41,422 nt of DNA from Holophagae bacterium (lineage in GTDB: Bacteria; Acidobacteriota; Thermoanaerobaculia; Thermoanaerobaculales; Sulfomarinibacteraceae): NCBI GenBank assembly GCA_030618605.1, contig JAUXDC010000001.1, forward strand, positions 1 to 41,422, written 5' to 3'. The notes beneath the pieces are model-generated. The model made no database searches. It was not told the DNA's origin and was given only the letters and a program-made list of their open reading frames with translations. Made by a program: the position numbers and the translations under genes. The first letter of the stretch is position 1. The number at the start of each line of letters is the position of its first letter. Below are positions 1,183 to 39,514 of the stretch, one piece after another.

Positions 1183-1208
1183 TCATCCCGGGCGGGGAAC
1201 GAAGACAA

Positions 1209-1289
1209 TTGAACCACGAAGACACAAAGACCACAAAGAAAGAACTTATAATACGACCCCTGAGTGTTCTTCGTGTCTTTGTGGTTCAA
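1209..1289. repeat. Imperfect 26-nt inverted repeat built from 8-nt words, between convergent genes
   Basis: TTGAACCACGAAGACACAAAGACCAC (1209-1234) versus its reverse complement at 1264-1289 (23/26 match), with a 29-nt loop. Words are GAAGACAC/AAAGACCA. Nearby direct repeat AGTTTCCAGT at 1350-1359 and 1364-1373. Confidence 0.7.
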
Positions 1290-1383
1290 ATTATTCGTTG
1301 GACTGATCAGTGTTCTCTGGACCTGTGGAGAGCCTCGGGTTGGGAGTCAAGTTTCCAGTTTTGAGTTTCCAGTATCCGGTTTT

Positions 1384-2067
1384 TTAATTCACCGATCCAG
1401 TCTCACCGAGATTTTGCCGAGCGAAATCCAGGATCCGTTGAAAGGTATCCGATTGCCGGCATCGTTCCGAGAGAGTCTGAAATACCTCTGAAGCCTTTTG
1501 GGTGTCTCCCGTGGCGACATAGGCGATCATCAGGTTTTCGAGGCTCTCACAGTCGTACTGGCGGGCAAAGGCTGCGGCCTCCGCGAAGACCAGTGCACCT
1601 TCAACATCGTCACCCATGTTCAGGCAGATGGTGAGGAGGGAGTAGATATCGCCCACGTAGGCATTTTCGTAGACCTCGTGCAGGTAGGGGAGGCAGCGGA
1701 GAAGGTACGGAGCGGCTACGGCGTACTGCTCACGCTCATAAAAAAGCACTCCTGCCGTGTAACAGGTCTGGCAGTAGACGCTGAGGACCTCGTCAAAGGT
1801 CGAGAGGTAGGGCTTGTACGAGACCAGGGCACTTTCCAGGGCTTCCGCTGCCTGATCCAGTTCCTGGAGGTCGTAGTGGATCGTGCCCACCAGGCTCAGG
1901 AGGAAGGCCCGCCAGTTGACCTCGGTCTCGACCGACTGGAGATCCCTGAGTCGGCTGATGTCCTCCTGGTCGGCCTCATGTTCGTCCATCTTGGCGATAG
2001 TCGCCTCGATACCTGCCGCTACGTCGCCGCTACGGTCGGAGCCTGTGTACCACTCTGGGATGCTCAT
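1384..2067 (-). CDS. Hypothetical protein, TPR-like helical repeats
   Basis: 227-aa ORF with protein-like composition (YCQTCYTAGVLFYEREQYAVAAPYLLRCLPYLHEVYENAY). No SD; a TAGAAT box lies 6 nt upstream of the ATG. Confidence 0.5.
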   Translation of the reverse strand: MSIPEWYTGSDRSGDVAAGIEATIAKMDEHEADQEDISRLRDLQSVETEVNWRAFLLSLVGTIHYDLQELDQAAEALESALVSYKPYLSTFDEVLSVYCQTCYTAGVLFYEREQYAVAAPYLLRCLPYLHEVYENAYVGDIYSLLTICLNMGDDVEGALVFAEAAAFARQYDCESLENLMIAYVATGDTQKASEVFQTLSERCRQSDTFQRILDFARQNLGETGSVN

Positions 2068-2097
2068 AGCGACATTCTACATCGGTTAAGATGTATC

Positions 2098-2119
2098 GCC
2101 CCATTTGGATAAATGGGGC
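2098..2119. promoter_or_regulatory. Perfect palindrome in a divergent spacer (candidate operator or hairpin)
   Basis: GCCCCATTT-GGAT-AAATGGGGC, a 9-bp perfect inverted repeat inside the 67-bp spacer between the 2067(-) and 2135(+) starts. Confidence 0.3.
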
Positions 2120-2134
2120 CCCAAGGGAGTTTTG

Positions 2135-3802: not shown

Positions 3803-4434
3803 AAGGCTTGGAGGAACGCGCGGCCGGGATTGCCCGGTGTCTGGATCTGTTCTACCCGGATGCTCGGTGTGAGCTGGATTTCAAAACCCCTTGGCAACTG
3901 CTTGCGGCAACGGTTCTCTCCGCCCAGTGCACCGACGTTCGTGTCAATCTGGTAACCCCTGAGCTCTTTCGGCGCTGGCCGACTCCGGAGGCGATGTCCC
4001 GAGCTGATCTGGCGGAGGTCGAGGGAGTCATTCACTCGACAGGTTTCTTCAGGAACAAGGCCAGGGCCCTTCGTGATGGTGCTCGAGTGCTGGTTGCCGA
4101 CCATGGAGGAGAGCTTCCTCGATCCATTGAGGGCATGGTCGACCTCCCAGGGGTCGGCCGGAAGACCGCCAAAGTGGTGTTGGGTGAAGCGTTCAACATT
4201 CCTGCGGGCATTGCTGTGGATACCCATGTCAAACGCCTTGCAGGCCGTTTTGGTCTCAGTGACGAAACTGATCCTGACCGAATTGCCGGGGACCTTGAGG
4301 CCTTGCTCCCCAAGTTTTGGTGGGTCGGTTTCTCCCTGCGTGTCGTTCTTCACGGACGAAGGGTCTGTACCGCGCGTAAGCCACAGTGCGACGACTGTGT
4401 TCTCGAAGGCGTCTGCCTGAAGAAAAATATTTAA
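3799..4434 (+). CDS. nth: Endonuclease III
   Basis: FKTPWQLLAATVLSAQCTD, HhH motif LPGVGRKTAKVVL, and C-terminal Fe-S cysteines CTARKPQCDDCVLEGVC. GTG start overlaps the upstream stop (GTGA). Confidence 0.9.
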   Translation: MKGLEERAAGIARCLDLFYPDARCELDFKTPWQLLAATVLSAQCTDVRVNLVTPELFRRWPTPEAMSRADLAEVEGVIHSTGFFRNKARALRDGARVLVADHGGELPRSIEGMVDLPGVGRKTAKVVLGEAFNIPAGIAVDTHVKRLAGRFGLSDETDPDRIAGDLEALLPKFWWVGFSLRVVLHGRRVCTARKPQCDDCVLEGVCLKKNI

Positions 4435-4481
4435 GCACTGAGCGATCAGCTACAATGACGGTCTGACAGGAGGCATACATC

Positions 4482-5534
4482 ATGATTGAAAAGATTCGTA
4501 AACAGCTGGGGGATTCGGCGTCCCTCTTGGACTATCGATGCACTGGGATTTCCAAAGACGTCCTGCATCTTCCCGGCCCGGATTTCGTCGACCGGATCGT
4601 TTCGCAGACCGATCGCAATCCCAAGGTGATGCAGTCACTGCAGTGGCTTTATGACACCGGCCGAATGGGTGGAACAGGGTTCGTTTCGATCCTTCCGGTC
4701 GATCAGGGCATCGAGCACTCCGGCGCCGCGTCCTTTGCTCCCAATCCGATCTATTTTGATCCTGAAAACATCGTCAAGCTGGCGATCGAGGGCGGTTGCA
4801 ACGGCGTTGCCTCGACCCTGGGTGTGTTGGGCTCTATTTCGCGGAAATATGCCCACAAGATTCCCTTCATCGTCAAGATCAACCATAACGAATTGCTGAC
4901 CTATCCGCCGGAGTTTGACCAGACCCTCTTTGCTTCGGTGGAGCAAGCATGGGATCTGGGCGCCGCCGGTATCGGGGCAACGATCTACTTTGGGTCGGAC
5001 AACTGCCGTCGTCAGATCATGGAGATTTCCGAGGCCTTCGAGGAGGCGCACTCCATGGGGATGTTCACCGTTCTGTGGTGCTACCTACGCAATCCCGGGT
5101 TCAAAAAGGACGGGGTCGATTACCACGCCTCGGCCGATTTGACCGGGCAGGCCAACCACATAGGTGTGACGATCGAGGCCGACATCATCAAGCAGAAGCA
5201 GCCGGAAAATAATGGTGGCTACAACGCCATCGGTTTTGGCAAGACCTCTCCGCTGGTCTACTCAGACCTGGTGCCGGACAACCCGATCGAGTTGACCCGC
5301 TGGCAAGTCGTCAACTGCTACATGGGACGCTCCGGCTTGATCAATTCGGGTGGAGCTTCCGGCGGCGCCGGTGACCTTGAGCAGGCAGTGATGACGGCCG
5401 TGGTCAACAAGCGTGCCGGCGGGATGGGGCTGATCTCCGGGCGCAAGGCCTTCCAGAAGCCGATGAACGTAGGTGTCGAACTGCTCAACGCAATCCAGGA
5501 TGTGTATCTGTGCGATGACGTGACGATTGCGTGA
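4482..5534 (+). CDS. fbaB: Class I fructose-bisphosphate aldolase (FbaB/DhnA type)
   Basis: 350 aa, nearly collinear with E. coli FbaB as I remember it ([48 protein letters not shown]). AGGAGG SD upstream. Confidence 0.9.
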
Positions 5535-5543
5535 ATGATTTAA

Positions 5544-5678
5544 GCTGTTAGCCGTTAGCTTTTAGCAGCGAAGCACCGTTTTCTTCGGAATGTCTGCTCG
5601 CCACTCGTTGATTTCCTTTATCGGGTGGCGAGCTTTTCTTTGGGGTTTGAGCTAAAGGCTAATTGCTAATCGCTAATT
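5544..5678. repeat. TTAGC-type heptamer arrays as inverted arms bracketing the fbaB terminator
   Basis: Arm 1 is GCTGTTA GCCGTTA GCTTTTA GCAGCG (5544-5570). Arm 2 is GCTAAAG GCTAATT GCTAATC GCTAATT (5651-5678). They are imperfect reverse complements. Confidence 0.75.
5596..5641 (+). terminator. Rho-independent terminator of fbaB
   Basis: 12-bp stem GCTCGCCACTCG / CGGGTGGCGAGC (one G-U pair), 14-nt loop, followed by TTTTCTTT. Confidence 0.6.
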
Positions 5679-5724
5679 TCTCTCGGCAAAATCGGGTCCA
5701 TCGTGGTTCCGGCATCGTCGGCAT

Positions 5725-6147
5725 TTACTCCCCAATGATCTTGACGAGAACCCTCTTCGGTCTTCGGCCGTCGAACTCGCCGTAGAAGATCTGCTCCCAG
5801 GTTCCGAAATCGAGGCGGCCCCTGGTGATGGCGACGACGACTTCTCGGCCCATAATCTGGCGCTTGTGGTGGGCGTCGCCGTTGTCCTCGCCGGTTCGGT
5901 TGTGGTGGTAGGTCTCGGGCGAAGCGTCGAAGGGCGCTAGCTTCTCCAACCAACGCTTGTAGTCCTGGTGGAGTCCATGCTCGTCGTCGTTGATGAACAC
6001 CGAGGCTGTGATGTGCATGGCGTTGACCAGGCACAGGCCCTCTTGTATGCCGGACTCCCGAACCGCCCGTTCAACATCGGCGGTGATGTTGACGAAGTCC
6101 ATGCGTTCGGGAATCTCGAACGTCAGATATTCGGTGTGGGATTTCAT
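5725..6147 (-). CDS. yjbQ: YjbQ/UPF0047 family protein
   Basis: [59 protein letters not shown]. Start taken at internal ATG 6147, which forms an ATGA overlap with the upstream stop. Confidence 0.85.
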
Positions 6148-7865: not shown

Positions 7866-7935
7866 TGGTGACTCCCGCGGAAAACCGCACGGATTGTTTA
7901 TCACAGATGCTTCAACCTTGCAGCCGAAAGCAATA

Positions 7936-7961
7936 ACCGGCCGCCCATTCGGGCGGCCGGT
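7936..7961 (-). terminator. GC-rich hairpin downstream of the acyl-CoA dehydrogenase gene
   Basis: ACCGGCCGCCC-ATTC-GGGCGGCCGGT, an 11-bp stem 37 nt after the stop. Only a weak T tract (TATTGCTTTC) follows on the minus strand. Confidence 0.5.
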
Positions 7962-7971
7962 CTGTTGTTCG

Positions 7972-7996
7972 ACTAATAGCTGACAGCTGATAGCTC
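7972..7996. repeat. Single arm of the TTAGC/GCTNNNA heptamer family
   Basis: Minus strand reads GCTATCA GCTGTCA GCTATTA, directly after the stop at 7998. Confidence 0.5.
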
Positions 7997-7997
7997 C

Positions 7998-9839
7998 CTA
8001 CATAATCGCGTACAGGGCTGCTTTCTCCCCGGAACGAATCGCCGCGGCCTTGGCCGGGACGGTCGGAAGGGCGCGGTAGCCAAAGTGGATCGCCGTCTGC
8101 ACCTTGTTGTGGTAGAACGCCGCCTCTTCGTTGTCTGAGAGGAATGCCTTGTATGCCTTTTTGTCGTCGGTGTCGACTCCGGCGTCAGAAAGGATGGCGG
8201 CCAACTTGGTCTTGGCCAGCATTGCCTGATCCAAGAGGAAGTGGGCGCCGAGGCAGGTGCCGACCATGTCCAGCAGCGGCACGGCGTTGATCAGCATCAC
8301 TTGGATGCCGTCGGGCCTTTTGGGGAGTTCCTTGGCGATGGTTTCGACCTGTTTGAGGGCCGCGGCCAAGAGCCATGCGGGTTCCATCAACTCGGGGTCG
8401 TTCTTGGCCTTGTTGAAGGTCTTCTCGGCCATGCCCAGCAAATCCTTGATCGGTTGACCGCCGGCCAGGGACAGCTTGCGGGCAACGAAGTCCAGCGCCT
8501 GGATGCCGTTGGTACCCTCGTACAGACAGGCGATCTCGGCATCGCGCATGTACTGCTCCGCCGGGTATTCCTTGGTATAGCCATAGCCGCCGTGAACCTG
8601 AACGCAGGTATGGGTCACCTGCAGGCCCCACTCGGAGCACCAGGCTTTGCAGATCGGGGTCATGACCTCGACGTAGTTCCTGTACTTCTTGGCCTCGTCA
8701 CCCTCGGTGGAGTGGCTGAGATCGAGGTAGTAGGATGCTTGCAGCAGGATGGCGCGCATCGCTTCGACATAGGCCTTGGAGGTCAGGAGCATGCGGCGGA
8801 CATCGGGATGCTCGACGATGGCCACCTGGGGCGCCTCTGGATCTTTCATCATTTTCCAGTGGCGGCTTTGCAGGCGCTCCTTGGCAAAGGCCAGGGCCTG
8901 CTGGTGGGCGCCGCTGGCTGCAGCGCAGCCCTGCATTCCAACCTCGATCCTGGCGGCGTTCATCATGTAGAACATCAGCTTCATGCCTTGGAGTTCTTCG
9001 CCCAGGAGGAAGCCCCGGCAACCGTCGTTGGCGCCGAAGACCAGCGAGCAGGTCGGGGAGCCGTGGATGCCCATTTTCTCTTCGATGTTGGAACATGCAA
9101 CGTCATTGGCATCACCGAGGGAGCCGTCGCCGTTGACGCGGATCTTGGGCACGACGAAGAGGGAAAGACCTTTGGTGCCGGGAGGGGCGCCTGGTGTGCG
9201 TGCCAAGACCAGGTGAATGATATTTTCGGCCAGATTGTGATCGCCGGACGTAATGAAAATCTTCTCGCCCGAGATCAGATAACTGCCGTCGTCCTGCTTG
9301 GCGGCCTTGGTCGTCGAGGCGCCGACGTCGGATCCGGCCTGGGGCTCGGTCAGACACATCGTGCCGCCCCACTGTCCGGTATAGGTCTTTTCGACATAGG
9401 TATTCTTGAGTTCGTCGTTGCCGAAGTTCTCGATCATGACGCCGACGCCCCGGGTCAGCATCAGGGTCAGGGAGAGGGAGACGTTGCTGCCGGAGAAGAA
9501 CTCGTTGACAACGGTGCCGACAACGTCCGGCAGGCCCATGCCGCCGTACTCGGGAGAACCCAGCAGGCCGATCCAGCCGCCCTCGCAGACGGTGTCGTAG
9601 ACCGGCTTGAAGCTGTCGGGCATGGTGACCACGCCGTCGTTCCACTGGGCCCCGATGCGGTCGCCGTCCTCGTTGCAGGATGCCATCTGCTCCTGGGCGA
9701 TCTTGAGCGCCTCGTCGACGATCATGTCCATCTGCTCGAGATCCCAGTCGCCAAAGCGCTCGGATTCGAGCAGTTTTCCGGTGTCAAGCCACTCGAAAAG
9801 CTGAAACTTAATGTCACGAATATCGACTTTGTAACCCAC
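7998..9839 (-). CDS. Long-form acyl-CoA dehydrogenase (FadE-like, with extra C-terminal domain)
   Basis: 613 aa. ACAD motifs WGGTMCLTEPQAGSD and GGYGYTKEYPAEQYMRDA. GTG start preceded by AAGGAGG plus 6 nt. Confidence 0.85.
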   Translation of the reverse strand: MGYKVDIRDIKFQLFEWLDTGKLLESERFGDWDLEQMDMIVDEALKIAQEQMASCNEDGDRIGAQWNDGVVTMPDSFKPVYDTVCEGGWIGLLGSPEYGGMGLPDVVGTVVNEFFSGSNVSLSLTLMLTRGVGVMIENFGNDELKNTYVEKTYTGQWGGTMCLTEPQAGSDVGASTTKAAKQDDGSYLISGEKIFITSGDHNLAENIIHLVLARTPGAPPGTKGLSLFVVPKIRVNGDGSLGDANDVACSNIEEKMGIHGSPTCSLVFGANDGCRGFLLGEELQGMKLMFYMMNAARIEVGMQGCAAASGAHQQALAFAKERLQSRHWKMMKDPEAPQVAIVEHPDVRRMLLTSKAYVEAMRAILLQASYYLDLSHSTEGDEAKKYRNYVEVMTPICKAWCSEWGLQVTHTCVQVHGGYGYTKEYPAEQYMRDAEIACLYEGTNGIQALDFVARKLSLAGGQPIKDLLGMAEKTFNKAKNDPELMEPAWLLAAALKQVETIAKELPKRPDGIQVMLINAVPLLDMVGTCLGAHFLLDQAMLAKTKLAAILSDAGVDTDDKKAYKAFLSDNEEAAFYHNKVQTAIHFGYRALPTVPAKAAAIRSGEKAALYAIM

Positions 9840-9873
9840 TGGATGCCTCCTTGAATTTTATCGGATAATCAAT

Positions 9874-9893
9874 ATGAATGAACACTCATTCAT
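9874..9893. promoter_or_regulatory. Perfect 8+8 palindrome, candidate TetR/FadR-type operator
   Basis: ATGAATGA-ACAC-TCATTCAT, 35-54 nt upstream of the acyl-CoA dehydrogenase start codon. Confidence 0.45.
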
Positions 9894-9962
9894 TCTCTCC
9901 GAAGTGCTGCGGGTTTGTCAAGGTGCGGCATGGGGGGCCCGACGGCGATTCGCCGTCAGGGG

Positions 9963-10135
9963 GTCGAAGAGTCGAAGAGTCAAAGAGGTCTGTAGGGGCG
10001 GACCCCTGTGTCCGCCCGTGTTGAGCCCAAGAGTTCGATGGAAAAGGAAGGGTTGAAGAGGTCAAAGAGTCAAAGGGGTCACAAAGGTCGAAGAGGTCGA
10101 AGGGTGTAAGAGTACAAGAGTGAAAGAGTTCAAGA
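9963..10135. repeat. GTNNAAGA octamer word arrays flanking GC hairpins
   Basis: GTCGAAGA GTCGAAGA GTCAAAGA at 9963-9986, and about 10 further GTNNAAGA(G) words at 10052-10135, all in the same orientation. Associated hairpins: GACGGCG-ATT-CGCCGTC (9941-9957, just upstream of the arrays) and GGGCGGAC-CCCTGT-GTCCGCCC (9996-10017, between them). Confidence 0.75.
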
Positions 10136-10252
10136 GTGGGGACGGGTGCCCTGTCGGAGAAGTGTTCTTGGATTTTGGATTGGTTGGTGGCTTCAGCACC
10201 GTCAGGAGCAACGGCCGCGTCGGCTGGCAGGATCAGCGTCAGTTGACAAACG

Positions 10253-10286
10253 ACAACAAAAAACCCGGCGGTTGCCCGCCGGGTTT
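10253..10286 (-). terminator. Rho-independent terminator of pnp
   Basis: Minus strand reads AAACCCGGCGG-GCAA-CCGCCGGGTTT followed by TTTTTTGTTGT, beginning 6 nt after the pnp stop. Confidence 0.8.
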
Positions 10287-10291
10287 GGTGT

Positions 10292-12606: not shown

Positions 12607-12876
12607 TCAGCCGCGGAGGCCGAGGCGTTCCACCAAGGAGCGATAGCGCGTGATGTCTTTGCCCTTGAGGTAGTCGAGCAACCGGCGACGGCGTCCAACC
12701 AGGCGCAAGAGACCACGGCGAGAGTGGAAGTCTTTCTTGAAAGACTTGAAGTGCTCGGTCAGGTACTGGATCCTCTTGGTCAGCAGTGCAATCTGCACCT
12801 CCGGGGATCCGGTATCGTTGGTGTGGGTTTTGAATTCTCCGATAATCGTTTCTTTCTGAGCGTCAAAATGACTCAT
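12607..12876 (-). CDS. rpsO: 30S ribosomal protein S15
   Basis: [44 protein letters not shown]...[18 protein letters not shown], 89 aa. Tandem ATGs at 12879 and 12876 follow GGAGGA; 12876 has the better spacing. Confidence 0.95.
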
Positions 12877-13052: not shown

Positions 13053-13101
13053 CACTTTCCCCTTTCCAATGTACCGGGCACCTTTCCAGGGGACCTTTCC
13101 A
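13053..13101. repeat. CCTTTCCA word cluster
   Basis: CACTTTCC (13053-13060) and CCTTTCCA at 13061, 13081 and 13094. Confidence 0.5.
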
Positions 13102-13229: not shown

Positions 13230-13460
13230 CTAGTGGTAGTCGGTGATTTCGACTTCGTAGGCATGTCCATTCTCCCATCTGAAACAGATCCGGTACTGTT
13301 GATTGACACGGATACTGAGTTGCGTTTTTCGACTCCCGCGGAGGCGCTCCAGCCGATTCCCGGGAGGGATCGAGAGCTCTTCGATCTCTCGAACCCGGTT
13401 TATCTGATCAAGCTTCCGTCGGGCGCCTGTGGGCTGGTGGATGGCTCGGCTGTGGGTGGC
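13230..13460 (-). pseudogene. higB: HigB/RelE-type toxin remnant lacking any start codon
   Basis: Minus frame reads ...ARRKLDQINRVREIEELSIPPGNRLERLRGSRKTQLSIRVNQQYRICFRWENGHAYEVEITDYH*. There is no ATG, GTG or TTG in this frame between the truB stop (13578) and the domain. The 5' boundary is approximate. Confidence 0.6.
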
Positions 13461-15897: not shown

Positions 15898-15947
15898 GAG
15901 GTGCTCCTTATTTTCGAACCGTCGAGACATCGCAAGATGGTTAGAAA

Positions 15948-16036
15948 GCTATTAGCTATTAGCAGTTAGCAAGACAGCGTCTCGACTCTCGGAGGAGTCT
16001 TCCGAGCTAATCGCTAAAAGCTAACTGCTAATTGCT
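15948..16036. repeat. TTAGC-type heptamer inverted arms inside the infB-rbfA operon
   Basis: Arm 1 is GCTATTA GCTATTA GCAGTTA GCAAG (15948-15973). Arm 2 is GCTAATC GCTAAAA GCTAACT GCTAATT GCT (16006-16036). They share 13 nt of exact complementarity (ATTAGCAGTTAGC). Central hairpin GACTC-TCGGAG-GAGTC at 15984-15999. Confidence 0.8.
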
Positions 16037-16057
16037 CCCGGCCTTGCCGGGCTCAAA

Positions 16058-16363
16058 TCATACCTGAACGATCTCCACGTCCCACATGAGGATATTTCCC
16101 GACCAGTTCTGGTCAATTGTCTGTTCCACCCGACGAAGGCGGGACTCGACGTCTACCGGATCAGCCGAGAACGCACAGACGGCGAAGGCCGCCCTTTGGT
16201 GAAGATTCTGATGATCGACCTCGGTGACGAGTACCTGATGCCGGCTTCGGATTCGTTCGATCAATGACCGTGTGTGGCTTCTCTTTGCCTTGAGGTTTCT
16301 CGCTTCTGGGATATGAAGTTCGAGTCGGCCGATTCCGACATATAGTGTGATTTCCATATCCAA
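16058..16363 (-). CDS. DUF503 (YlxP-like) protein
   Basis: GIGRLELHIPEARNLKAKRSHTRSLIERIRSRHQVLVTEVDHQNLHQRAAFAVCAFS. Sits in the typical position between infB and rbfA. Confidence 0.85.
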   Translation of the reverse strand: MDMEITLYVGIGRLELHIPEARNLKAKRSHTRSLIERIRSRHQVLVTEVDHQNLHQRAAFAVCAFSADPVDVESRLRRVEQTIDQNWSGNILMWDVEIVQV

Positions 16364-21305: not shown

Positions 21306-22586
21306 ATGATAGCTGTGATTCAGGTCCTTGCTGCATCGTGGGCTCTCCTTGGGGAGATGGCGCCCTATCTCCTGTTTGGGTTCTTGGTCGCCGGGTTGTT
21401 GTCGGTCTTCGTCTCGCCGGAGTGGGTGGAACAGCATCTGGGCCGCAAGGGATTTGCCCAGGTTGCCAAGGCCAGTTTGTTTGGGGTTCCCTTGCCCTTG
21501 TGTTCATGCGGGGTCCTGCCTGTGGCGGCTTCCTTGAGGAGGCACGGCGCCGGAAAAGGGGCGACGACTGCGTTTCTACTCTCAACGCCCCAGACCGGAG
21601 TCGACAGCATCGCCGTTACATGGGCTTTGCTTGGCCCCGTTGTCGCGTTCATTCGACCGCTTGCGGCCTTCATTACCGGCATCGCCGGCGGTATGGTTGT
21701 TCAGGCTGTTGAACCGGACGAAGATCCGCAGACTCTGCCGGAAAAGGATGGAGGATGTGCGGATTCGTGTTGTTCTTCAGAGAGGGAAGAACACGCACTG
21801 TTTAAGGCTCTGCGCTACGGGTTCGTGACCCTGCCTCGGGATATTGGCAGGGCTCTTTTTGTCGGGCTGGTTCTCTCCGGGATCATCGCCGCTTTTCTCA
21901 ATCCTGATCATGTGAAGGTCGTCTTTGGAGGCGGGGTTCTGCCTTATCTGGTGGCGATGGCCGTGGGAATCCCGTTGTACGTCTGTGCGACTGCCTCAAC
22001 GCCGATCGCGGCCAGCCTGATCGGTGCCGGCCTGTCTCCCGGTGCAGCCTTGGTGTTTTTGATCTCAGGTCCGGCCACCAATGTCGCTTCGGTGACGACG
22101 TTGCTGAAAGTCCTCGGGAGGAAAACGGTGGCTGTGTACCTTGCCACGGTAGTCGTCGGGTCGTTGGCTACAGGCCTGGTGGTCGATTTCTTTTTTGGGA
22201 GGTGGGTGTTGACGGGTATGCCTGCCTCAGCGATCGAGGCGGTGCACCGTCATGCCGACGGCACGGTGGCAACGGGTTGGGGATTCAAGGAAATCAGTGC
22301 AGTAGTGCTGTTGGCCGTTCTTGTGGGGGCAATGTGGCCTCGCCGTTCCCGGGCTGTAGAAGAGAACTCGGGTGCCGAAAGCCTTGAGGAACGGTTGAGG
22401 TTGTCGGTCGGTGGGATGCGTTGTAATGGCTGCGTGACGAGCATCGGGCGTGCCTTGCGTGAAGTTGAGGGGGTCCGGGACGTCACGGTCGATCTTGCGG
22501 CGGCGAAGGCGATCGTGATCGGGATTGGGCTTGACTCCGAGGCCTTGTGCGCTGAGGTCAGGGCATTGGGGTTTGATTGCGAGTGA
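21306..22586 (+). CDS. DUF318/ArsP-type metal permease fused to a C-terminal HMA domain
   Basis: Permease motif GVPLPLCSCGVLPVAASL and many TM segments. C-terminal LSVGGMRCNGCVTSIGRALREVEGV is HMA-like. Start is uncertain: ATG 21306 or the track's GTG 21246. Confidence 0.75.
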   Translation: MIAVIQVLAASWALLGEMAPYLLFGFLVAGLLSVFVSPEWVEQHLGRKGFAQVAKASLFGVPLPLCSCGVLPVAASLRRHGAGKGATTAFLLSTPQTGVDSIAVTWALLGPVVAFIRPLAAFITGIAGGMVVQAVEPDEDPQTLPEKDGGCADSCCSSEREEHALFKALRYGFVTLPRDIGRALFVGLVLSGIIAAFLNPDHVKVVFGGGVLPYLVAMAVGIPLYVCATASTPIAASLIGAGLSPGAALVFLISGPATNVASVTTLLKVLGRKTVAVYLATVVVGSLATGLVVDFFFGRWVLTGMPASAIEAVHRHADGTVATGWGFKEISAVVLLAVLVGAMWPRRSRAVEENSGAESLEERLRLSVGGMRCNGCVTSIGRALREVEGVRDVTVDLAAAKAIVIGIGLDSEALCAEVRALGFDCE

Positions 22587-22599
22587 TATTCTACTGACG

Positions 22600-22992
22600 A
22601 TGGACACGCCGAAAGAACTCCGCAGGATTGTCGTTGTCGATGATTCCATGCTGCAGTGTGTTTTGTGGCGGCGAATGCTGGAGAGCCGTTACCCGGATCA
22701 GGTGGCGGTGGAAACATTCACGGATCCCGTTGAAGCCGTCGGCGTTCTCGGCCCCGACATTCACCTGATGTTGCTGGACTGGGAGATGCCGGTGATGGAC
22801 GGTATGGAGGTCTTTGAGGCGGCGGTCGAAGCCGGCGTCAACCCCAAGCGCATCATCATCTCCTCGTCTCACCCTGCCCAACGCCTGCACGAGGCCTTCG
22901 ACCGAACTGCCTGTCTTGCCGTGATCGAAAAGGTCGAACCCCAACAGCAGGCGGCCTTCATGATGATCCTCGACAGCATCATGAAACGCTAA
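22600..22992 (+). CDS. Single-domain response regulator (receiver only)
   Basis: RIVVVDDSMLQ..., acceptor context LMLLDWEMPVMDG, and no output domain. Start taken at ATG 22600 (MDTPKELRRIVVVDD). Confidence 0.8.
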   Translation: MDTPKELRRIVVVDDSMLQCVLWRRMLESRYPDQVAVETFTDPVEAVGVLGPDIHLMLLDWEMPVMDGMEVFEAAVEAGVNPKRIIISSSHPAQRLHEAFDRTACLAVIEKVEPQQQAAFMMILDSIMKR

Positions 22993-25172: not shown

Positions 25173-25496
25173 CGAAGACCCTCCAGTGGGTTGTGGTACG
25201 CCTGCAGGGGGCCGGGGTTACAGGCGCTCACAGCTTGGAAGGGTAGCAGAGCGTTAGACCTCATCCCCAAGACGCTTCAAAGAGCGAAGCGAAAATGGGG
25301 ATAAGTTGCTCTCAGCTCTCAGCTGCAGCCTCCTCCGCAGCGGCAGCGAAGGACTTGCCTGGAGGTCGGGCTGATCATCTCGAGGAGATTGGAGGACATG
25401 ATGTCGAAGGACTCCTCCGAGAAAATACAGGGGGCGTGGAGGTGGTGGAGTTGATTGCCGTCGAGGACCAGAAGATTCCAGGCTACACTCAGGCTG

Positions 25497-25700
25497 ATGA
25501 CAGGAGACCGAGGCATTGTCGTCGGCTTGAACGCCGTGATCGTTGCTCTGGAAGGTGACCGGCCCAGGGTGCTGACAGTATCGGTGCCCGAGGGAACGCC
25601 TCTCGAGGGAGGAACCGCGGCTCTGGAAAGGGCCGATAGTCCAGGGTCGATCGCTCTTCCTACCGGGCCTTTGGACCCTACCAGCGACCGGACCCTGAAC
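25497..25700 (+). pseudogene. Possible truncated gene fragment (N-terminus resembling some NUDIX-like proteins)
   Basis: MTGDRGIVVGLNAVIVALEGDRPRVLTVSV...SIALPTGPLDPTSDRTLN looks protein-like. The frame then degenerates and runs into the convergent gene at 25760. Competing ORFs overlap it. Confidence 0.25.
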
Positions 25701-25759
25701 ATGCCAACTGATGCCGTTGCGGCCCCTGTTCCTGACGCTGGTTCGGCCTCCCAGCCTCC

Positions 25760-27040: not shown

Positions 27041-27088
27041 TGGGAGATTCTACGGGAACCGCGCCCCACGGGTTCATACCGGGGCGGC

Positions 27089-27150
27089 GGGGAACAGGGG
27101 ACATGGAGCAGACCTGACTTTGCTCCCTGTTCCTTGCACCCTGCTCCCTG
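27089..27150. repeat. NNCCCTG heptamer array with an inverted partner
   Basis: CTCCCTG TTCCTTG CACCCTG CTCCCTG at 27123-27150. Partner GGAACAGGGGACATGGAGCA at 27091-27110 (GGAACAGG pairs with CCTGTTCC, GAGCA with TGCTC). Confidence 0.65.
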
Positions 27151-27156
27151 AGACCA

Positions 27157-31745: not shown

Positions 31746-31953
31746 AACAGGCTCCTTTGTGTTTCTTTCTACCCTGGCTGTTGCAGGTGCCTTGTGCCTG
31801 TATGTGAGCGGGCTCGGGGACCTGCCCCTTCGACGCCGTTGACCTGAACCATACCTCCAATAATCCGTATCTCTATCAGTTGGAGTTTCGTTCGCTCGAA
31901 GCGTTTTTCACCGTACAATAGGGGCCGTTCGAGAGGGGCAAGGGAGAAGAAAA

Positions 31954-35900: not shown

Positions 35901-36295
35901 CCTGGTCCCGCGCTACATCGGCCACGGCCTACGGACGTTACCGTCATACGCTGGCTTGGATGCGTAAGGGGAAAGGCGAAAGTAGCGCCCGGTTCACCGG
36001 AGTCGTCCCTCAATCGGGGCCGTGGGAGTTGGCGATCCACCTGCCCCACAAGCAGCGTTTCCGGATGGCCCGGAAATGGGGTGTGTGGAAACTTGCAGTA
36101 GTGCAAGGAGATCAGCGGCACGAAATCGGCTTTGACGCGGGGGAGGCACCCCGAGGCTGGAACCTGGTCGACAGTTTTGATCTGGAAGGCGGCGACGTGA
36201 CCGTTGAGTTTTCGGACGAGACGACCGGTATGATTGTCGTGGCCGATGCCGTGCGGTGGACACCGATTGCACGAACAGGCGGGGAGGTCGAATGA
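32897..36295 (+). CDS. ABC-2-type permease fused to a very large extracytoplasmic region
   Basis: ATG 32897 (GGAGG, 7 nt) overlaps the ATPase stop by 8 nt. About 6 N-terminal TM segments are followed by about 800 aa of soluble sequence. The tail GDVTVEFSDETTGMIVVADAVRWTP resembles golvesin-C-like domains (tentative). No HExxH anywhere. Confidence 0.75.
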   Translation: MRKDVVLSVMRAELRLTRRLVRYWIFLTLALLSGLVIYLYYCALHAVFSSYSGTAANIGPRFLIGAMGLYYVGFFLFGLVFMAFDVRARDVRERMVEVLDARPMTTPELMVGRFTAQLLAAWVPAWVMVALMQLLGFALPALGAPIGQPLQPTSLVMFVLLMCLPAMAFGLALTYLVTLLVRNRLIAAVVTIGALVGIIWASFKVSPVASVFLDVSGMYSVLFPSDILPGMADLAGFLQRLGYLVAASGLLALAIAVHPRQDGGSRRLRAVLGAGLMAAAVAILGAGAGLRASNIRQLDEWLAAHEARASEQRPDIIRIDATTDIEPGKAITVDAEIVISAPGESALDRVLLTLNPGLEVHEVTVDGSDISFEHSDGLLELDLRLDPGAERRVRLRYSGKPDIRFGYLDAVRTPERLPAMEAQLYILGYDRGLNDRRYVALMPAIGWLPRSGAAVEPKDGSGLGPDFFEVDLEVSVPDGWLAAGPGARHDEGLTDGRSIFRFDPGAPVDGAAVVTSVFETFAFDAEGITLELLLTPGHLRTVEDLSDARDAIKERVADRLQEFAEAGLTYPYDGFTVVEAPNALRGFGGGWRLGSVLSQPGMMLVRELGFPLARFDVPFRDESDWQDHEGGLPQAKLERLEEFFINDFSGGNLFTGAARSFGMTQCSARGPGREALDWTLDELGTLMMSGTRGYFSAHLFTPEMNSKIGQVIQGHLIGGGGGHFADSLIEVFASRPAVWKAVLDTSPVDIDPWDDPQKAIDGLSLKAGTLAQVIYDDIGFEGSAALLASLRRDFSGTTFTLDDAVAAAERQDQGLGRMIEDLLTTTNLPGLVGQQTEAYRLPDGTDGGARYQLNLVVRNDEATPGLFRVVYYVGADDDQEREESEPLRIDGQSAVRFSTVLTRPPTGVWVHPYLSLNRSSFRVPLAEVDETAVVEAEPSEGVTISEFEIADSDVVIIDDLDDGFEVSEGDGPSGLRLGAKGQDDAELDQGLPVEEFGPMPKAWSRATSATAYGRYRHTLAWMRKGKGESSARFTGVVPQSGPWELAIHLPHKQRFRMARKWGVWKLAVVQGDQRHEIGFDAGEAPRGWNLVDSFDLEGGDVTVEFSDETTGMIVVADAVRWTPIARTGGEVE

Positions 36296-36315
36296 GAAGT
36301 CGGGCCGGATTCTCC

Positions 36316-36341
36316 GATGCCACTGATCGGCCAGTGGCATC
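36316..36341 (+). terminator. Perfect 10-bp hairpin after the permease-fusion gene (no U tract)
   Basis: GATGCCACTG-ATCGGC-CAGTGGCATC, 21 nt after the stop at 36295. Confidence 0.4.
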
Positions 36342-36356
36342 GAATGTGCGAGGGAA

Positions 36357-36499
36357 GTTTCAAATTCTCAATTTCAAATTCTCAATTTTGAATTTCAGAA
36401 CGAAACGTTCTTACGCCTCTCCCTCTTTAAATAAGGGGTTAGGGGCAGGGGTGAGGAAGTCAGGGGTTTATAATTCAAAATTCAAAATTCAAAATTCAA
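36357..36499. repeat. AT-rich heptamer/14-mer tandem arrays
   Basis: TTTCAAATTCTCAA x2 is perfect (36358-36385). AATTCAA x4 is perfect (36472-36499). A G-rich core lies between them. Confidence 0.8.
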
Positions 36500-36504
36500 A
36501 ATTA

Positions 36505-37599
36505 TTGATTTCTGATCCCCCTCGTCGATTGAGGTCCACCACCGCTGCCCTGGCCACCTGCCTCTGCCTGATACTGATCGGCTGTGGGCCAGGACGAACC
36601 GATGAGCCCGTCGAGTTCAAGGTGCCGGTCACGGTCGCCGAGGTAGGAACAGGCGTTGTCGAAGACCGGATCAGAGCCACCGGATCCCTCCGTGCTTCAC
36701 AGGTTGTCACATTGACCGTCGAGAGCCGTGGAATCCTCAATCTCGCCAGAAAGGATGGGCGCCGGTTGGCCGAGGGGGACCGGGTGAGGGTCGGCCAAGT
36801 CGTTGCCGAGATCTCCGGTGAAGACGTTCGGGTGGCGGCACGGACTGCGGCGACCCGGCGACGCTTCGAGAGCGCCCAGAGCGATTTCGAGGCCACTCGC
36901 GAACTCTTTGATCAGGGTCTGATTAACGAGGCGGAACTCCGGCGGGCCGAGACGACGCTCGAGGATGCCCGCCTCGAGTATGACCGGAGTCTCCTGGTCG
37001 AGGTCCGCAACCGTCTGGTGACACCGATTGATGGGGTCATCTTGACCCTGGCCAGAGATGTCAACGGGCGGCCGATGGCGGACGGTCAGTTGGTGGCACC
37101 AGGATTCGCGGTCGCACAGATTGCACCGACCGGGGAGTTGGTCGCCGATATCGACATCGTAGGCTTGGATGTCGCCCGTATTCGTGAAGGGCTTCCTGTC
37201 AGGGTGTTGCATCACGCCTTCGGTGATCAGGAGTTCGAAGGCCGTGTCGTGCGTTTGGCACCCTCGATCAACGAACTGACCCGTGCCTTGCGGGCGGAGG
37301 TTGGCGTCGACAATTCAAGCGGTCTGTTAAGACCCGGGATGTTCGTCGAGGCGGAGGTCTTGATCGAACGCCGGGAGGGCGTTGCCGTCGTACCCCGGGA
37401 TGCCGTTGCCGACAGGGCGGGCAAACGGGTGGTCTTTGTCCTTCAGGGGCAGCGGGTCGTCCGCCGAGAGGTTGAGCTGGGTCTCGGGGATGACCGAATG
37501 GTCGAGGTTCGGTCCGGTATTGAGCAAGGCGAACGAGTCGTCGTGCGAGGCCTGGAGACCCTGACCGATGGGTCGCGGGTGCGGGTGACGGGGACGTAG
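36505..37599 (+). CDS. RND efflux periplasmic adaptor (MFP/HlyD family) lipoprotein
   Basis: Lipobox LILIGCG, then RIRATGSLRASQVVTLTVESRGIL..., ...GMFVEAEVLIERREGVAVVPRDAV.... Start is uncertain (TTG 36505 or TTG 36529). The track's start at 36256 runs through the repeat arrays and overlaps the upstream gene. Confidence 0.8.
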   Translation: MISDPPRRLRSTTAALATCLCLILIGCGPGRTDEPVEFKVPVTVAEVGTGVVEDRIRATGSLRASQVVTLTVESRGILNLARKDGRRLAEGDRVRVGQVVAEISGEDVRVAARTAATRRRFESAQSDFEATRELFDQGLINEAELRRAETTLEDARLEYDRSLLVEVRNRLVTPIDGVILTLARDVNGRPMADGQLVAPGFAVAQIAPTGELVADIDIVGLDVARIREGLPVRVLHHAFGDQEFEGRVVRLAPSINELTRALRAEVGVDNSSGLLRPGMFVEAEVLIERREGVAVVPRDAVADRAGKRVVFVLQGQRVVRREVELGLGDDRMVEVRSGIEQGERVVVRGLETLTDGSRVRVTGT

Positions 37600-37846
37600 G
37601 CTGGGATGCTAGGACGCTGGGACGCTAGGATGCTAGGACGCTGGGACGCTAGGATGCTGGGACGCTGGGATGCTGGAAGGCAAGACATAAGAGGGCACCG
37701 CTGCGGATCTGGAGATCCACGCCCCACGAGCACGTCCTGTGTCCGGGGCGAGCGAAAAACCTATTGTCCCTTCTTTTCGATCTGGACGAAAAAGGTAACT
37801 CCTTGCCTCCTGGTTTCCGGGCTTCCTAGCCTTCCAGCCTCCCAGC
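37600..37846. repeat. GCTGGGAY/GCTAGGAY octamer array (x10) with inverted 5-unit partner
   Basis: Ten contiguous octamers at 37600-37679. Reverse-complement units (CTCCTGGT TTCCGGGC TTCCTAGC CTTCCAGC CTCCCAGC) at 37807-37846. Lies between convergent genes. Confidence 0.85.
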
Positions 37847-37851
37847 GTTTT

Positions 37852-39210
37852 TCAGTCCGGGTGCGCCCAGTCATGCTCGGGATCAATGGTGACGGTGCAG
37901 TGATCCCGCAGCCCGAGTTCGTCGATGAGAGGTTGGTCCGCAAGCAAGACTGCGATGGCCGCATAATGTCCGCCTTGACGGAACATCGGTGCAGCCGTGG
38001 TGATTGCGATGACCAAAACTACCGTTGCAACGGCCCACATCGCCAGAACTCTTTTGGTTGCCGTACGTCGTCGGGTCCTCAAGAGGGCTTCGAGCGGGAC
38101 CACGACAGTCAGAGCGATCGTCGCCATCAAAATCTGGGTCTGCCAGTACATTATCGTTGTCGGAGAGGCTGCGAAGGACAGGGCCGCGGTGCAGCAGGCC
38201 ACAGACAGGTAGCCCTTGAGCCAGCCGCGGAGGGGGCCATCGGCCTCCTGCGACCACGGACGGCGCCGGCGTGCCTTGCGGAAGAGACGGGCGACGGCCC
38301 AGATCGGCACCAGGACACTCAGATGAGCGACCCCGGCCAGGAGGGTCATTGGAGGCAGCAGCCAGTGATCGACGCCTGCGCCGAAGACTGGTGTGAAGTC
38401 GAAAGCCGTCAAACGGGACGGCAGGGAGAGCGATGCCATTCTCAGGGTGTAGCCCAGGCCTCGGGCCATCGGATAGATCAGAGCCAGACCTCGGAAGGGG
38501 AAACCGGCCCCGGCCGGCGCCAGGCTGGGATCGGCGGCGATGGCATGGATCCAGGGGATGAGCGACAGCAGGGTCGCGCACGTCGCTGCTGCCAAGGCGC
38601 TCCAGTGGACCTTGATCAATCGTGTGGCAAAAAGGGCAATCGAGATCAGTGCGAGCAAGGCTGCAGAAGAATGGAGTTGGGCGCCCAGTCCAATCACCAG
38701 GACGTGGGCGAAGGTCGCCAATGCGACGGGTTTTCGTCTCATGTGGATGGCGGTCGCCAGGTGAAGCAAACCCATCGGCAAGGCGTAGTTCGGGGGCCAG
38801 ATGAAGGACGAGAAGGCCATTCGCCAGGGACCCAGCCACAGGAGAAGGAGCAACAGCCATCGGCCCCGAGACCCCAGGGCCGGTCGGATCGAGCGTTCGA
38901 GGAAGAGGAAGGCCGCCATGTTGATGACGACCATCGACAGGGCCAAAGCCCGGAAGTCCCACCAGATCATAAGCGGCACCGCAGAGAAAAGAGTGATCAG
39001 GCTCCCTGGCGAGAATCCACCGGCCGAGGTCGGCATTCCATGTGGCAGGAGGACATCCTGGGTGATCCACCACCAGCCGAATCGCAATTGGTTGACCTGG
39101 TCCGCTTCGACCTGGGATCTGAGGGCCATCACGATCGACACGGCCAAACCCAGGCCGAAGATCGACCAATACAATACGGTACGGGAGGGTGAGCGGAATG
39201 CAGAGTTCAT
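37852..39210 (-). CDS. Polytopic integral membrane protein, function unknown
   Basis: 452 aa with at least 10 hydrophobic segments (e.g. LLLLLLWLGPWRMAFSSFIWPP, ALLALISIALFATRLI). I recognised no catalytic motif. Confidence 0.65.
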   Translation of the reverse strand: MNSAFRSPSRTVLYWSIFGLGLAVSIVMALRSQVEADQVNQLRFGWWWITQDVLLPHGMPTSAGGFSPGSLITLFSAVPLMIWWDFRALALSMVVINMAAFLFLERSIRPALGSRGRWLLLLLLWLGPWRMAFSSFIWPPNYALPMGLLHLATAIHMRRKPVALATFAHVLVIGLGAQLHSSAALLALISIALFATRLIKVHWSALAAATCATLLSLIPWIHAIAADPSLAPAGAGFPFRGLALIYPMARGLGYTLRMASLSLPSRLTAFDFTPVFGAGVDHWLLPPMTLLAGVAHLSVLVPIWAVARLFRKARRRRPWSQEADGPLRGWLKGYLSVACCTAALSFAASPTTIMYWQTQILMATIALTVVVPLEALLRTRRRTATKRVLAMWAVATVVLVIAITTAAPMFRQGGHYAAIAVLLADQPLIDELGLRDHCTVTIDPEHDWAHPD

Positions 39211-39295
39211 GGGGTCCCGATCGTCACCAGAGTCGACTGGAATGTACCATGACGAATCCGCCGGCGCCGGGGGTGCGGAGTGTTCGAAAAATCCC

Positions 39296-39514
39296 AGGAG
39301 GGGGAGAATTCAACGCAAAGGCGCAAAAACGCAGAGGACACAGGAACGTGTGGAAACCGAGGGGTTTTCTCCCTCTCTCCCTCTCTCCCCCTCTCCCCCT
39401 CCAAGAAGCGGGGAGCAGGGATCAGCGAACAGGGATCAGGCGCGAATATCTGCCTCTCTCATGTTTTTTGTTATCTCCCTTTTTGTGCCTTTTTGCGTCC
39501 CTGCGTCTCTGCGT
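39296..39514. repeat. Nested inverted word arrays with a 38-nt polypyrimidine tract
   Basis: ACGCAAAG GCGCAAAA ACGCAGAG (39313-39336) faces TTGTGCCT TTTTGCGT CCCTGCGT CTCTGCGT (39483-39514). AGGAGGGGGAGA (39296-39307) faces TCTCCCCCTCC (39392-39402). Pure pyrimidine run 39365-39402. CAGGGAT words 39412-39440. Confidence 0.8.

Follow-up and report, generated by a model that had tools for sequence, protein, structure and literature searches.

The DNA analysed here, referred to throughout as the window, comprises 41,422 nucleotides (nt) of contig JAUXDC010000001.1 from a Holophagae bacterium of the class Thermoanaerobaculia, with a G+C content of about 59%. Ten of its intergenic spacers hold tandem arrays of short words, which are mostly arranged as two inverted arms around a core. 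The repeated unit is 7-9 nt long and consists of a conserved core of 5-6 nt with one or two variable positions, periods of 7 and 8 nt being about equally common. These arrays had been described in a first-pass annotation made from the sequence alone; at all ten places the sequences read as claimed there, and Tandem Repeats Finder (TRF), run at a low threshold, reports nine of the ten. Pfam scans of the window's open reading frames (ORFs) identified ordinary housekeeping genes, including the cluster nusA-infB-DUF503-rbfA-DHH-truB ... rpsO-pnp on the minus strand, genes for a DeoC-family aldolase, an acyl-CoA dehydrogenase, an ABC ATPase and a Golvesin-domain protein, and a resistance-nodulation-division (RND) efflux pair composed of a membrane fusion protein (MFP) and AcrB. 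The arrays are located as follows, with the strand where one was assigned.

1209 to 1240: locus 1, 5' arm, purine-rich 8-9-nt units GAAGACAC / AAAGACCAC, in a convergent spacer, 27 nt past the OmpA-like gene's stop
1260 to 1289: locus 1, 3' arm, GTTCTTCGTGTCTTTGTGGTTCAA, forming a stem of about 17 bp or more with 1209-1240
5543 to 5569: locus 2, 5' arm, (TTAGCNN) x3.4, 9 nt past the stop of the DeoC-family gene
5596 to 5641, plus strand: locus 2, core, canonical intrinsic terminator inside the arms, 12-bp GC stem followed by TTTTCTTT
5650 to 5678: locus 2, 3' arm, (NNGCTAA) x about 4
7935 to 7962, minus strand: locus 3, terminator hairpin of the acyl-CoA dehydrogenase gene
7972 to 7996: locus 3, a single 3-unit array, TAGCTGA / CAGCTGA, with no partner arm
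9963 to 9987, plus strand: locus 4, array A, (GTCGAAGA) x3.1
10056 to 10138, plus strand: locus 4, array B, (GTCRAAGRG) about x10, direct with array A and not inverted
13058 to 13101, minus strand: locus 5, four irregular GGAAAG(G) copies upstream of rpsO; weak
15947 to 15970: locus 6, 5' arm, (AGCTATT / AGCAGTT) x3.4, between the DUF503 stop and the rbfA start
16004 to 16034: locus 6, 3' arm, (GCTAANN) x4, perfectly complementary to the 5' arm over 13 bp
27089 to 27111: locus 7, 5' arm, CAGGGNN-type, G-rich
27120 to 27150: locus 7, 3' arm, (NNCCCTG) x4, its end 7 nt away from the beta-eliminating lyase stop
36358 to 36397, plus strand: locus 8, array 1, (TTTCAAATTCTCAA) x2.2-2.8, closing with one inverted TTGAATT
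36472 to 36503, plus strand: locus 8, array 2, (AATTCAA) x4.6
37600 to 37676: locus 9, 5' arm, (GCTRGGAY) x9.6 with a 24-nt superperiod, 1 nt past the MFP stop
37822 to 37846: locus 9, 3' arm, (CTTCCWGC) x3, 6 nt before the stop of a 452-aa membrane-protein gene
39312 to 39337: locus 10, outer 5' arm, ACGCAAAGG-type x3, CGCAAAG word family
39368 to 39401: locus 10, inner pyrimidine-rich array, (TCTCCCYC) x4.2
39411 to 39440: locus 10, inner purine-rich array, (GGGAKCA) x4.3, pairing partially with 39368-39401
39478 to 39514: locus 10, outer 3' arm, (CCTTTTTGCG / TGCGTCYC) x3-4, 33 nt upstream of the AcrB start

Neighbouring genes that help to place them are:

12607 to 12876, minus strand: rpsO
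16058 to 16363, minus strand: DUF503 gene
22525 to 22992, plus strand: response regulator gene
39548 (start), plus strand: AcrB gene

Convergent, tandem (operon-internal) and divergent spacers are all represented, as had been noted before. Locus 6 lies inside the nusA-infB-rbfA operon, and the spacer 39211-39547 is divergent because the AcrB gene starts at 39548; the minus-strand ORFs 39521..40123 and 40259..41374 are spurious.

Anatomy, enrichment and authenticity of the arrays

The order of array, core and reverse-complement array, with opposite-strand arrays lying close together at variable distance, was recovered at six to seven of the ten loci, six of them clear and one partial, which bears out the description of the arrays as mostly inverted arms. 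Long imperfect hairpins are predicted at six loci with significant z-scores from -3.4 to -6.5 and in part at one more. Against dinucleotide shuffles the values are -4.46 for 1190-1296, -6.51 for 5540-5682, -4.83 for 15944-16040 and -3.42 for 27085-27155; for 37596-37850 and 39290-39520, where mononucleotide shuffles were used, they range from -3.5 to -5.9. The folds of the four shorter loci persist under DNA parameters. At 36350-36510 the inverted pairing is only partial, the two same-orientation arrays of 9963-10138 surround a GC hairpin (z about -1), and the four irregularly spaced CTTTCC(A) copies at 13053-13101 are unstructured (z +0.40). The first-pass annotation had also predicted cruciforms, but with cores of 30-150 nt between the arms their extrusion from duplex DNA is unlikely, and pairing would need RNA or single-stranded DNA.

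Arms of one locus are often unequal (9.6 against 3 units at locus 9), and higher-order periods occur at 37600-37676 (24 nt) and 36358-36388 (14 nt). Variation in the GCTRGGAY array is found at R and Y only. At locus 2 it is the 5-nt core of the units that pairs with the 5' arm, the two variable positions remaining mostly unpaired, and the predicted stems in general carry roughly one mismatch or bulge per unit, very regularly so in the Anaerolineae locus L042. Locus 10 is nested, with a ACGCAAAGG / CCTTTTTGCG pair placed around a TCTCCCYC / GGGAKCA pair, and the array of locus 3 sits between the stop codon at 7998 and the terminator hairpin. Small extra arrays were seen at 1336-1367 (GAGTTTCCAGT x2), adjoining the stop of a TPR gene and resembling the word TCCAGTTT of the Anaerolineae locus L056, and at 25308-25324 (GCTCTCA x2.4), over the stop of the minus-strand ORF 25319..25702.

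At a score of at least 30 and after merging, TRF placed 20 arrays in the spacers (5.1 kb) and 11 in coding sequence (36.3 kb), or about 3.9 against 0.30 per kb, counts that rest on the initial gene map of the window. In 200 dinucleotide-preserving shuffles of the spacers a mean of 0.78 arrays (maximum 4) was obtained against 19 real ones, and for periods 7-9 alone a mean of 0.28 against 15. The real spacers thus lie far above both shuffled and coding sequence, the two comparisons that had been proposed to refute the arrays. Arrays of period 7-9 have 2.4-9.8 copies. They belong with the long simple sequence repeats (LSSR) and short tandemly repeated repetitive sequences (STRR) known from other bacteria, a class defined by at least three head-to-tail units of 5-11 nt above chance expectation, and they share with these a strong non-coding bias, both in the window and in its relatives.

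Polynucleotide phosphorylase (PNPase) puts the window in the class Thermoanaerobaculia of the Acidobacteriota. Relatives were obtained around this protein, with protein identities of 97-98% for L001 and L005, 79-92% for L002-L004 and L006, and 70-75% for L007-L025 (Sulfomarinibacteraceae and others). In 26 Thermoanaerobaculia sequences, namely 25 related loci and the window, with genes called by a simple procedure based on G+C at third codon positions (GC3) and checked on the window, the density was 1.79 arrays per kb of spacer and 0.15 per kb of coding DNA. The arrays are about 12-fold depleted in coding DNA. The GC3-based caller fails on low-GC control loci, so spacer densities outside the Thermoanaerobaculia are unusable. 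A reverse-complement partner, defined as at least two reverse-complement core hexamers within 300 nt, accompanies 53 of the 90 intergenic arrays (59%) in the same 26 sequences; the 30% found for random spacer DNA of these loci was set aside as a control, since this pool holds orthologous and related arrays and is contaminated.

The exact protein of the 452-aa membrane-protein gene was found on four contigs (L081-L084) from four other sequencing runs, which match the window base for base, arrays included, until the contigs break. All four stop at one point inside the GCTRGGAY array (window position about 37629), and two also begin inside the GGGAGAGA array (about 39385). Short-read contigs break inside the longest array, the copy number of which is that of the window assembly. 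Like arrays are held by relatives on contigs of 0.25-1.9 Mb, which are probably long-read assemblies. The suspicion of an assembly artefact, raised beforehand as a possible refutation, is answered by the base-identical sequence of four independent short-read assemblies and by the Mb-scale relatives. In practical terms, such arrays fragment short-read metagenome assemblies and seed spurious or lengthened ORF calls in the annotation of metagenome-assembled genomes.

Orthologous spacers and recurrent words

In L001-L006 the flanking genes are collinear with the window and the alignments break at the spacers. With flanking proteins 90-97% identical, one relative can have an array where another has none or an array of a different word. 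The comparison of orthologous spacers that had been suggested earlier revealed the presence or absence of arrays and changes in word or unit number between relatives, the same variation in length and sequence at one spacer that marks LSSR and STRR. One clear case is the rbfA/DUF503 spacer (locus 6), where the arms read TTAGC / GCTAA in the window and TCAGC / GCTGA in L005. All units in the two arms of L005 differ from the window by one identical base change, the unit numbers being 3 against 7; one good arm is left in L006, and L002 has no array. At locus 4 the 180-nt GTCRAAG block upstream of the acyl-CoA dehydrogenase gene is missing from L002 and L003. The direct GTCRAAG arrays are closely followed downstream by a good sigma-70-like promoter match that precedes this gene (9892-9921, minus strand; TTGACA, 18 nt, GAGAAT), and the promoter-proximal sequence is conserved in the array-less L002 and L003. 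The GTCRAAG arrays appear to have been inserted between the pnp terminator and this promoter. L002 carries GTCAAAGAG and GGCACAAAAA arrays in a different spacer, and its spacer orthologous to locus 3 holds different, nested arrays.

For the MFP region ten further loci were obtained through protein homologues. Past the MFP stop, the window, L092/L093 and L094 have homologous GCTRGGAY arrays of 9-10 units each that differ by substitutions. At this place L091, at 97% protein identity, carries an AGCTNTC array together with a hairpin, L088 carries GGTCRAAG as an inverted pair (z -3.6), and L086 and L087 have no array. Read from these sequence comparisons, the arrays are heritable, yet some close relatives carry another word or none. 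The 452-aa gene between the MFP and AcrB genes of the RND efflux operon (37852-39210, minus strand) encodes a multi-pass membrane protein with no Pfam match and has the two largest hairpin loci on either side; L086-L089 and L091 possess it, L090 and L092/L093 lack it, and a remnant is found in L085.

The truB-rpsO spacer, about 700 nt long in the window and 105 nt in L001, contains a HigB-like toxin fragment (13233-13430, minus strand; PF05015, E = 2.6e-17), which covers profile positions 30-91 of 91 and misses the N-terminus; an intact antitoxin is not evident. In L001 the same spacer has a (CCCTAAN)n array at 2304-2335 of that locus, which matches the telomere-type repeat by coincidence and is probably one more word of the same repeat class.

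Both arrays of locus 8 lie within 36292-36579, which is free of stops in the frame of the MFP lipoprotein that follows and reaches from the ancestral MFP start (ATGA, overlapping the stop of the upstream gene) to the lipobox. This frame contains no stop, and the two alternative frames contain 9 and 4 (shuffle P = 0.006). An insert upstream of MFP is missing from L086 and L090, and two unrelated array-bearing inserts, in L088 and in L091-L094, are likewise in frame and stop-free (P = 0.077 and 0.025). The frame appears to be kept open by selection; the arrays may encode an N-terminal extension of the MFP, or the open frame may serve translational coupling. The earlier statement that translating the arrays yields spurious ORFs is correct for cases such as 37606..39192 (plus strand), but appears not to extend to 36292-36579. 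Gene callers are led by the arrays to lengthen ORFs and give MFP homologues 419-447 aa in place of about 355. An imperfect 11-12-nt direct repeat (GTCGAATGAG / GTCGATTGAG), read by eye and without statistics, flanks the insert at 36296-36528.

The window alone contains about 8 words in 41 kb, and together with L001-L025 (about 0.46 Mb) 79 distinct words were counted among 123 arrays. That the word differs between loci, as the first-pass annotation stated, is true in this sense, but GCTAAT-type arms occur at three window loci, and strict locus-specificity does not hold, as GTCRAAG, CGCAAAG, AATTCAA and TGGAAAGG recur at non-orthologous sites. GTCRAAG is found in the window, L002, L009 and L088/L089; AATTCAA in the window, L008, L015 and L025; GCTRAYN at the three window loci and in L002, L005, L006 and L009; and TGGAAAGG in the window, L008 and L010. 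These four families gave two matches in 55 loci of other phyla. CGCAAAG was detected by regular expression in the window and one other-phylum locus, and by reading the sequences also in L090-L094.

A metagenome scan with (CGCAAAG N1-2) x3 returned at least 120 contigs, an abundance that is uncalibrated as no control word was scanned. In the 80 loci read (L095-L174), which have 32-76% G+C, at least two CTTTGCG copies lie within 300 nt in 37 cases. Where flanks are complete the partner lies 3' in 24 cases and 5' in 4, elements detected on both strands being counted twice. The flanks are alike: T-rich sequence and then C and A/R directly precede the 5' arm, and the mirrored pattern follows the 3' arm. 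Loops are 6-198 nt long, the hairpin of L141 is a perfect 35 bp (z -14.7), and L139 (40% G+C) has five CGCAAAG arrays on one strand within 6 kb. A purine-rich arm came first in 25 against 12 cases in Thermoanaerobaculia (p = 0.047, the cases not being independent) and in 17 against 11 elsewhere. A general purine-first polarity is suggestive only, and it is clear for the CGCAAAG family alone.

Adjacent inverted arrays were also found at PNPase-based loci of Anaerolineae, namely AGTAAACA / TGTCTACT in L042, GTAACRA / TTACTCG in L053 and L039, and TCCAGTTT x16.6 / CAACTGGA x6.6 in L056. The folds of L042, L053 and L039 have z-scores of -4.4 to -8.5, and with the metagenome hairpin of L141 the range is -4.4 to -14.7.

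Origin and possible roles of the arrays

With a probability of about one half, we regard the elements as slippage-driven intergenic hepta- and octanucleotide arrays of the LSSR/STRR class in a paired form, around a core that frequently has a GC hairpin or terminator of its own, the arms being kept complementary by template switching or selection. The arrays would grow, shrink and homogenise by replication slippage, to which anatomical signatures such as the 24-nt superperiod of GCTRGGAY, an AABBCC unit pattern in L005 and the arms of 9.6 and 3 units point. Complementarity could be held up by intrastrand template switching across the hairpin, by selection for pairing, or by both, because in one clear case the same base change is found in the units of both arms. 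The elements would persist only where genes stay unbroken and, at the 5' ends of reading frames, only in frame and stop-free. If transcribed in 3' untranslated regions, intercistronic regions or leaders, the arms would fold into long stems interrupted about once per unit, and their role may at most be a generic structural one, for example insulation or protection of RNA ends. A locus-specific regulatory role is rejected, because orthologous spacers of close relatives lack the arrays or carry other words.

Several observations weigh against an origin by slippage of this kind. Words recurring at non-orthologous sites and in distant genomes are not predicted by passive slippage, and neither are the similar flanks and the fixed arm order (24 against 4) of the CGCAAAG family. 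Variation within units is focused on one or two positions (summed chi-square 331 against 218 +/- 17 simulated), which could reflect a factor that recognises the core; this statistic is, however, inflated by variants that duplication passes on. The retention of 9-10 GCTRGGAY units across three lineages indicates that copy number is not hypermutable on that timescale. Selection for pairing in one strand of RNA also finds no support: in 14 hairpins of tandem spacers the sense strand was the more stable in 7 and the antisense strand in 6, with one tie (Wilcoxon p = 0.38), in a comparison of low power. Two further explanations, binding sites and mobile elements, stay alive because slippage leaves the shared words, the CGCAAAG flanks and order, and the position-specific conservation unexplained.

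A minority reading, improbable though not far-fetched, is that the arrays belong to a pan-bacterial, sequence-specific system with active machinery and are not passive microsatellites. It is based on the defined families, e.g. (CGCAAAGR)n, with alike flanks and a purine-rich arm followed by a pyrimidine-rich one in DNA of 32-76% G+C. If this were true, the arrays would be new bacterial foldback elements with inverted arms made of subrepeat arrays, or would point to an oligomeric nucleic-acid-binding factor or a templated repeat-adding enzyme that creates and maintains them. Should the shared words and flanks reflect such machinery, the class would merit the attention that REP and CRISPR repeats once received.

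The arrays could alternatively be multimeric sites at which an oligomeric protein binds DNA or RNA, such as a nucleoid-associated protein, a global regulator or a ring-shaped RNA binder. Each unit would then consist of a conserved core and a free spacer position, and paired arrays would bind both strands or loop the DNA. Ring proteins that read periodic short repeats are known, HutP reading (UAGNNNN)3 and TRAP likewise such repeats. The distribution of variation agrees with this, as 1-2 positions vary around an invariant core of 5-6 nt (R and Y only in GCTRGGAY) and the arms of locus 2 have the TTAGC core in common and not the spacer bases. The 55 other-phylum loci contain next to none of the word families seen in the window or its relatives, and the CGCAAAG flanks are similar across contigs. 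Binding was also proposed by the authors of the Geobacter study for a like architecture (PMC2700814), and CspB is cited in PMC4679880 as binding per heptamer. However, 79 words in 123 arrays would call for many proteins or none, arrays appear, vanish and switch word at orthologous spacers of close relatives, and they keep no fixed place relative to promoters or start codons, their density being similar across spacer types. No candidate protein was identified, and we consider this explanation unlikely.

We also doubt that the arrays are non-autonomous mobile elements of a foldback type or resembling miniature inverted-repeat transposable elements (MITE), with short-subrepeat arrays as terminal inverted repeats, spreading inside one genome and from one to another. 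In favour are orthologous spacers polymorphic for the presence of arrays, word families common to non-orthologous sites and nested arrangements (locus 10; L002). The CGCAAAG family, found in at least 120 contigs of widely differing G+C content with alike flanks and a fixed arm order, and the five arrays of L139 in 6 kb also speak for mobility, as does the possible repeat flanking 36296/36528; as no control word was scanned, however, the abundance of CGCAAAG cannot count as special. Flanking direct repeats were not noticed by eye at the other loci. The cores of the GTCRAAG elements in the window, L002 and L088 look unrelated when read side by side without alignment, and so do, by eye, the GCTAAT cores 5567-5650 and 15971-16003. 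Arms are often very unequal or partnerless, no transposase or REP-associated tyrosine transposase (RAYT) is found among the window ORFs, and homologous arrays diverge in place through unit substitutions.

A selected role in RNA, as bidirectional terminators or as 3'-end stabilisers that resist 3' exonucleases like the REP elements of E. coli, is rather improbable as the primary explanation. It is suggested by the position of many arms next to stop codons, at 1-12 nt from the stops at 5534, 7998, 27157, 37599 and 37852 in the window. Of 45 arrays in tandem spacers of the relatives, 16 are no more than 18 nt from the upstream stop and 4 no more than 18 nt from the downstream start, the position of which is uncertain, and arrays are carried by 35% of convergent against 17% of divergent spacers. 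The elements favour the 3' ends of genes somewhat, without being confined there. Per kb, however, the 26 Thermoanaerobaculia sequences have 2.05 arrays in convergent, 1.82 in tandem and 1.77 in divergent spacers, so that divergent density nearly equals convergent density. Canonical terminators lie in the core of locus 2 and beside the array of locus 3. The terminator consensus scan matched separate GC hairpins at 7935-7962 and 10261-10286, the latter being that of pnp, and gave a weak match inside locus 7, while the terminator in the core of locus 2 was recognised from its fold and missed by the scan. A scan of the whole window against Rfam gave no match at the gathering score. The arms themselves were rejected as intrinsic terminators, since they have no U-tract and the true terminators (5596-5641, 7935-7962 and 10261-10286) are separate. 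In the CGCAAAG family the T-rich sequence before the 5' arm and the A-rich sequence after the 3' arm are the reverse of a terminator, and close relatives do without arrays. A terminator or stabiliser role is weakened because of the equal divergent density, these reversed flanks and the lack of a sense bias.

Chance low-complexity sequence or an assembly artefact can practically be dismissed as the source of the arrays: the breaks of short-read contigs inside them and the longest array, which these contigs cannot check, leave exact copy numbers alone in question, against the excess over shuffles, the same sequence in four independent assemblies, and homologous arrays in relatives from other samples and on Mb-scale contigs.

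Comparison with known repeat classes

To our knowledge, neither function nor origin has been established for any of the short-unit arrays reported from bacterial spacers since 1990. CRISPR arrays, which the first-pass annotation had already set apart, require repeats of 21-48 nt with unique spacers of similar length and usually cas genes; the anatomy here differs, with contiguous units of 7-9 nt, and Pfam scans of the window ORFs gave no cas domains. Repetitive extragenic palindromic (REP) sequences and bacterial interspersed mosaic elements (BIME) resemble the arrays in being intergenic, hairpin-forming and often placed at gene 3' ends, with possible roles in mRNA stability or termination. 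A REP is one imperfect palindrome of 20-40 nt with a genome-wide consensus and a cognate RAYT, whereas the window arms are tandem arrays with no consensus common to the loci. Their exclusion in the earlier annotation is supported by this anatomy and by the lack of a RAYT/Y1 transposase among the window ORFs. The foldback (FB) transposons of eukaryotes likewise have unequal inverted arms built from tandem short subrepeats around a variable central loop, but their arms measure hundreds of bp to kb, they are demonstrably mobile and some carry a transposase.

The first-pass annotation knew of no described element class with this behaviour. A literature search with the literal repeat strings gave no matches; nevertheless, paired or heptamer arrays are on record (PMC2700814, PMC4692102, PMC4679880). 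As reported in PMC4679880 and PMC4692102, LSSR (Mrazek et al. 2007) are an excess of repeats with 5-11-nt units in the non-coding DNA of scattered environmental bacteria, with heptanucleotides the commonest and an origin by slippage tied to the polymerase footprint proposed. They differ in being defined statistically, with no paired inverted grammar. In the published parallels slippage is proposed as the origin, and lengths differ between close relatives (PMC4692102, PMC4679880, PMC2700814).

Arrays of TAACTGA occur in Beggiatoaceae, Cyanobacteria and Bacteroidetes (MacGregor 2015, PMC4679880). Both these and the STRR are tandem heptamers, nearly always intergenic and often directly upstream of starts without a Shine-Dalgarno sequence, to which AATTCAA x4.6 just upstream of the MFP signal peptide is comparable. 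They have a sporadic phylogenetic distribution with one word in unrelated phyla, and Anaerolineae L056 carries CAACTGAA/TAACTGAA arrays as a parallel. The STRR heptamers of cyanobacteria were reportedly described by Mazel et al. in 1990. STRR and TAACTGA arrays are almost all direct (one inverted case, in Beggiatoa) and mostly of one word per genome, in contrast to the 59% with an inverted partner here.

Xanthomonas genomes contain 70-75 inverted GGGAATC array pairs each as potential stem-loops, which are intergenic, near ORF ends and variable in length and sequence between close relatives; most of them are transcribed, and the study identified no role (Rehm et al. 2015, PMC4692102). Together with GGGGAYT of Nostoc they share with our arrays intergenic heptamers of conserved and variable unit positions, and the GGGAKCA array at 39411-39440 resembles the GGGNATC word of Xanthomonas. 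One dominant G-rich word per genome and a G-quadruplex (G4) rationale, with a mode of four units, set them apart. Here repeated G3 tracts occur only at 39411-39440 and at 37600-37676 (GCTGGGAC, broken by GCTAGGAY units), and most words are unable to form a G4 (e.g. GCTAATN, AATTCAA, GTCGAAGA). The Xanthomonas arrays are also under-represented between divergent ORFs, while here the density is similar in all spacer types.

A close likeness is found in the "putative global regulator binding sites", classes 1-3, of Geobacter metallireducens (Aklujkar et al. 2009, PMC2700814). These are paired sites of 3-5 tandem 7-9-nt repeats (GTTGCTYN x4, TCTCCGTS[Y] x3, MTYCTGA x5), in classes 1 and 2 on opposite strands at variable distance, with 24, 21 and 8 pairs, one of them inside the proBA operon between proB and proA; G. 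sulfurreducens has none of them (PMC2700814). Several words per genome, pairing, intergenic and operon-internal positions and absence from a sister species are thus found in both. Geobacter has three or four classes with 8-24 pairs each and 3-5 units; in the window and its relatives words number in the dozens, arrays reach about 10 units, arms are unequal and pairs can be nested. The interpretation proposed there is binding of an IHF/HU-type protein, and the phylum is Desulfobacterota as against Acidobacteriota.

Known in cyanobacteria since 1990 and later from Xanthomonas, Geobacter, Beggiatoaceae and Bacteroidetes, the class is hereby extended to the Acidobacteriota (Thermoanaerobaculia) and the Chloroflexi (Anaerolineae). 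The graded series of orthologous spacers shows the speed of turnover and the joint change of both arms, and arrays inside a reading frame survive in it only when in frame and stop-free. The class is on record, though without a name or explanation, and the Thermoanaerobaculia are a new and particularly word-rich lineage of it.

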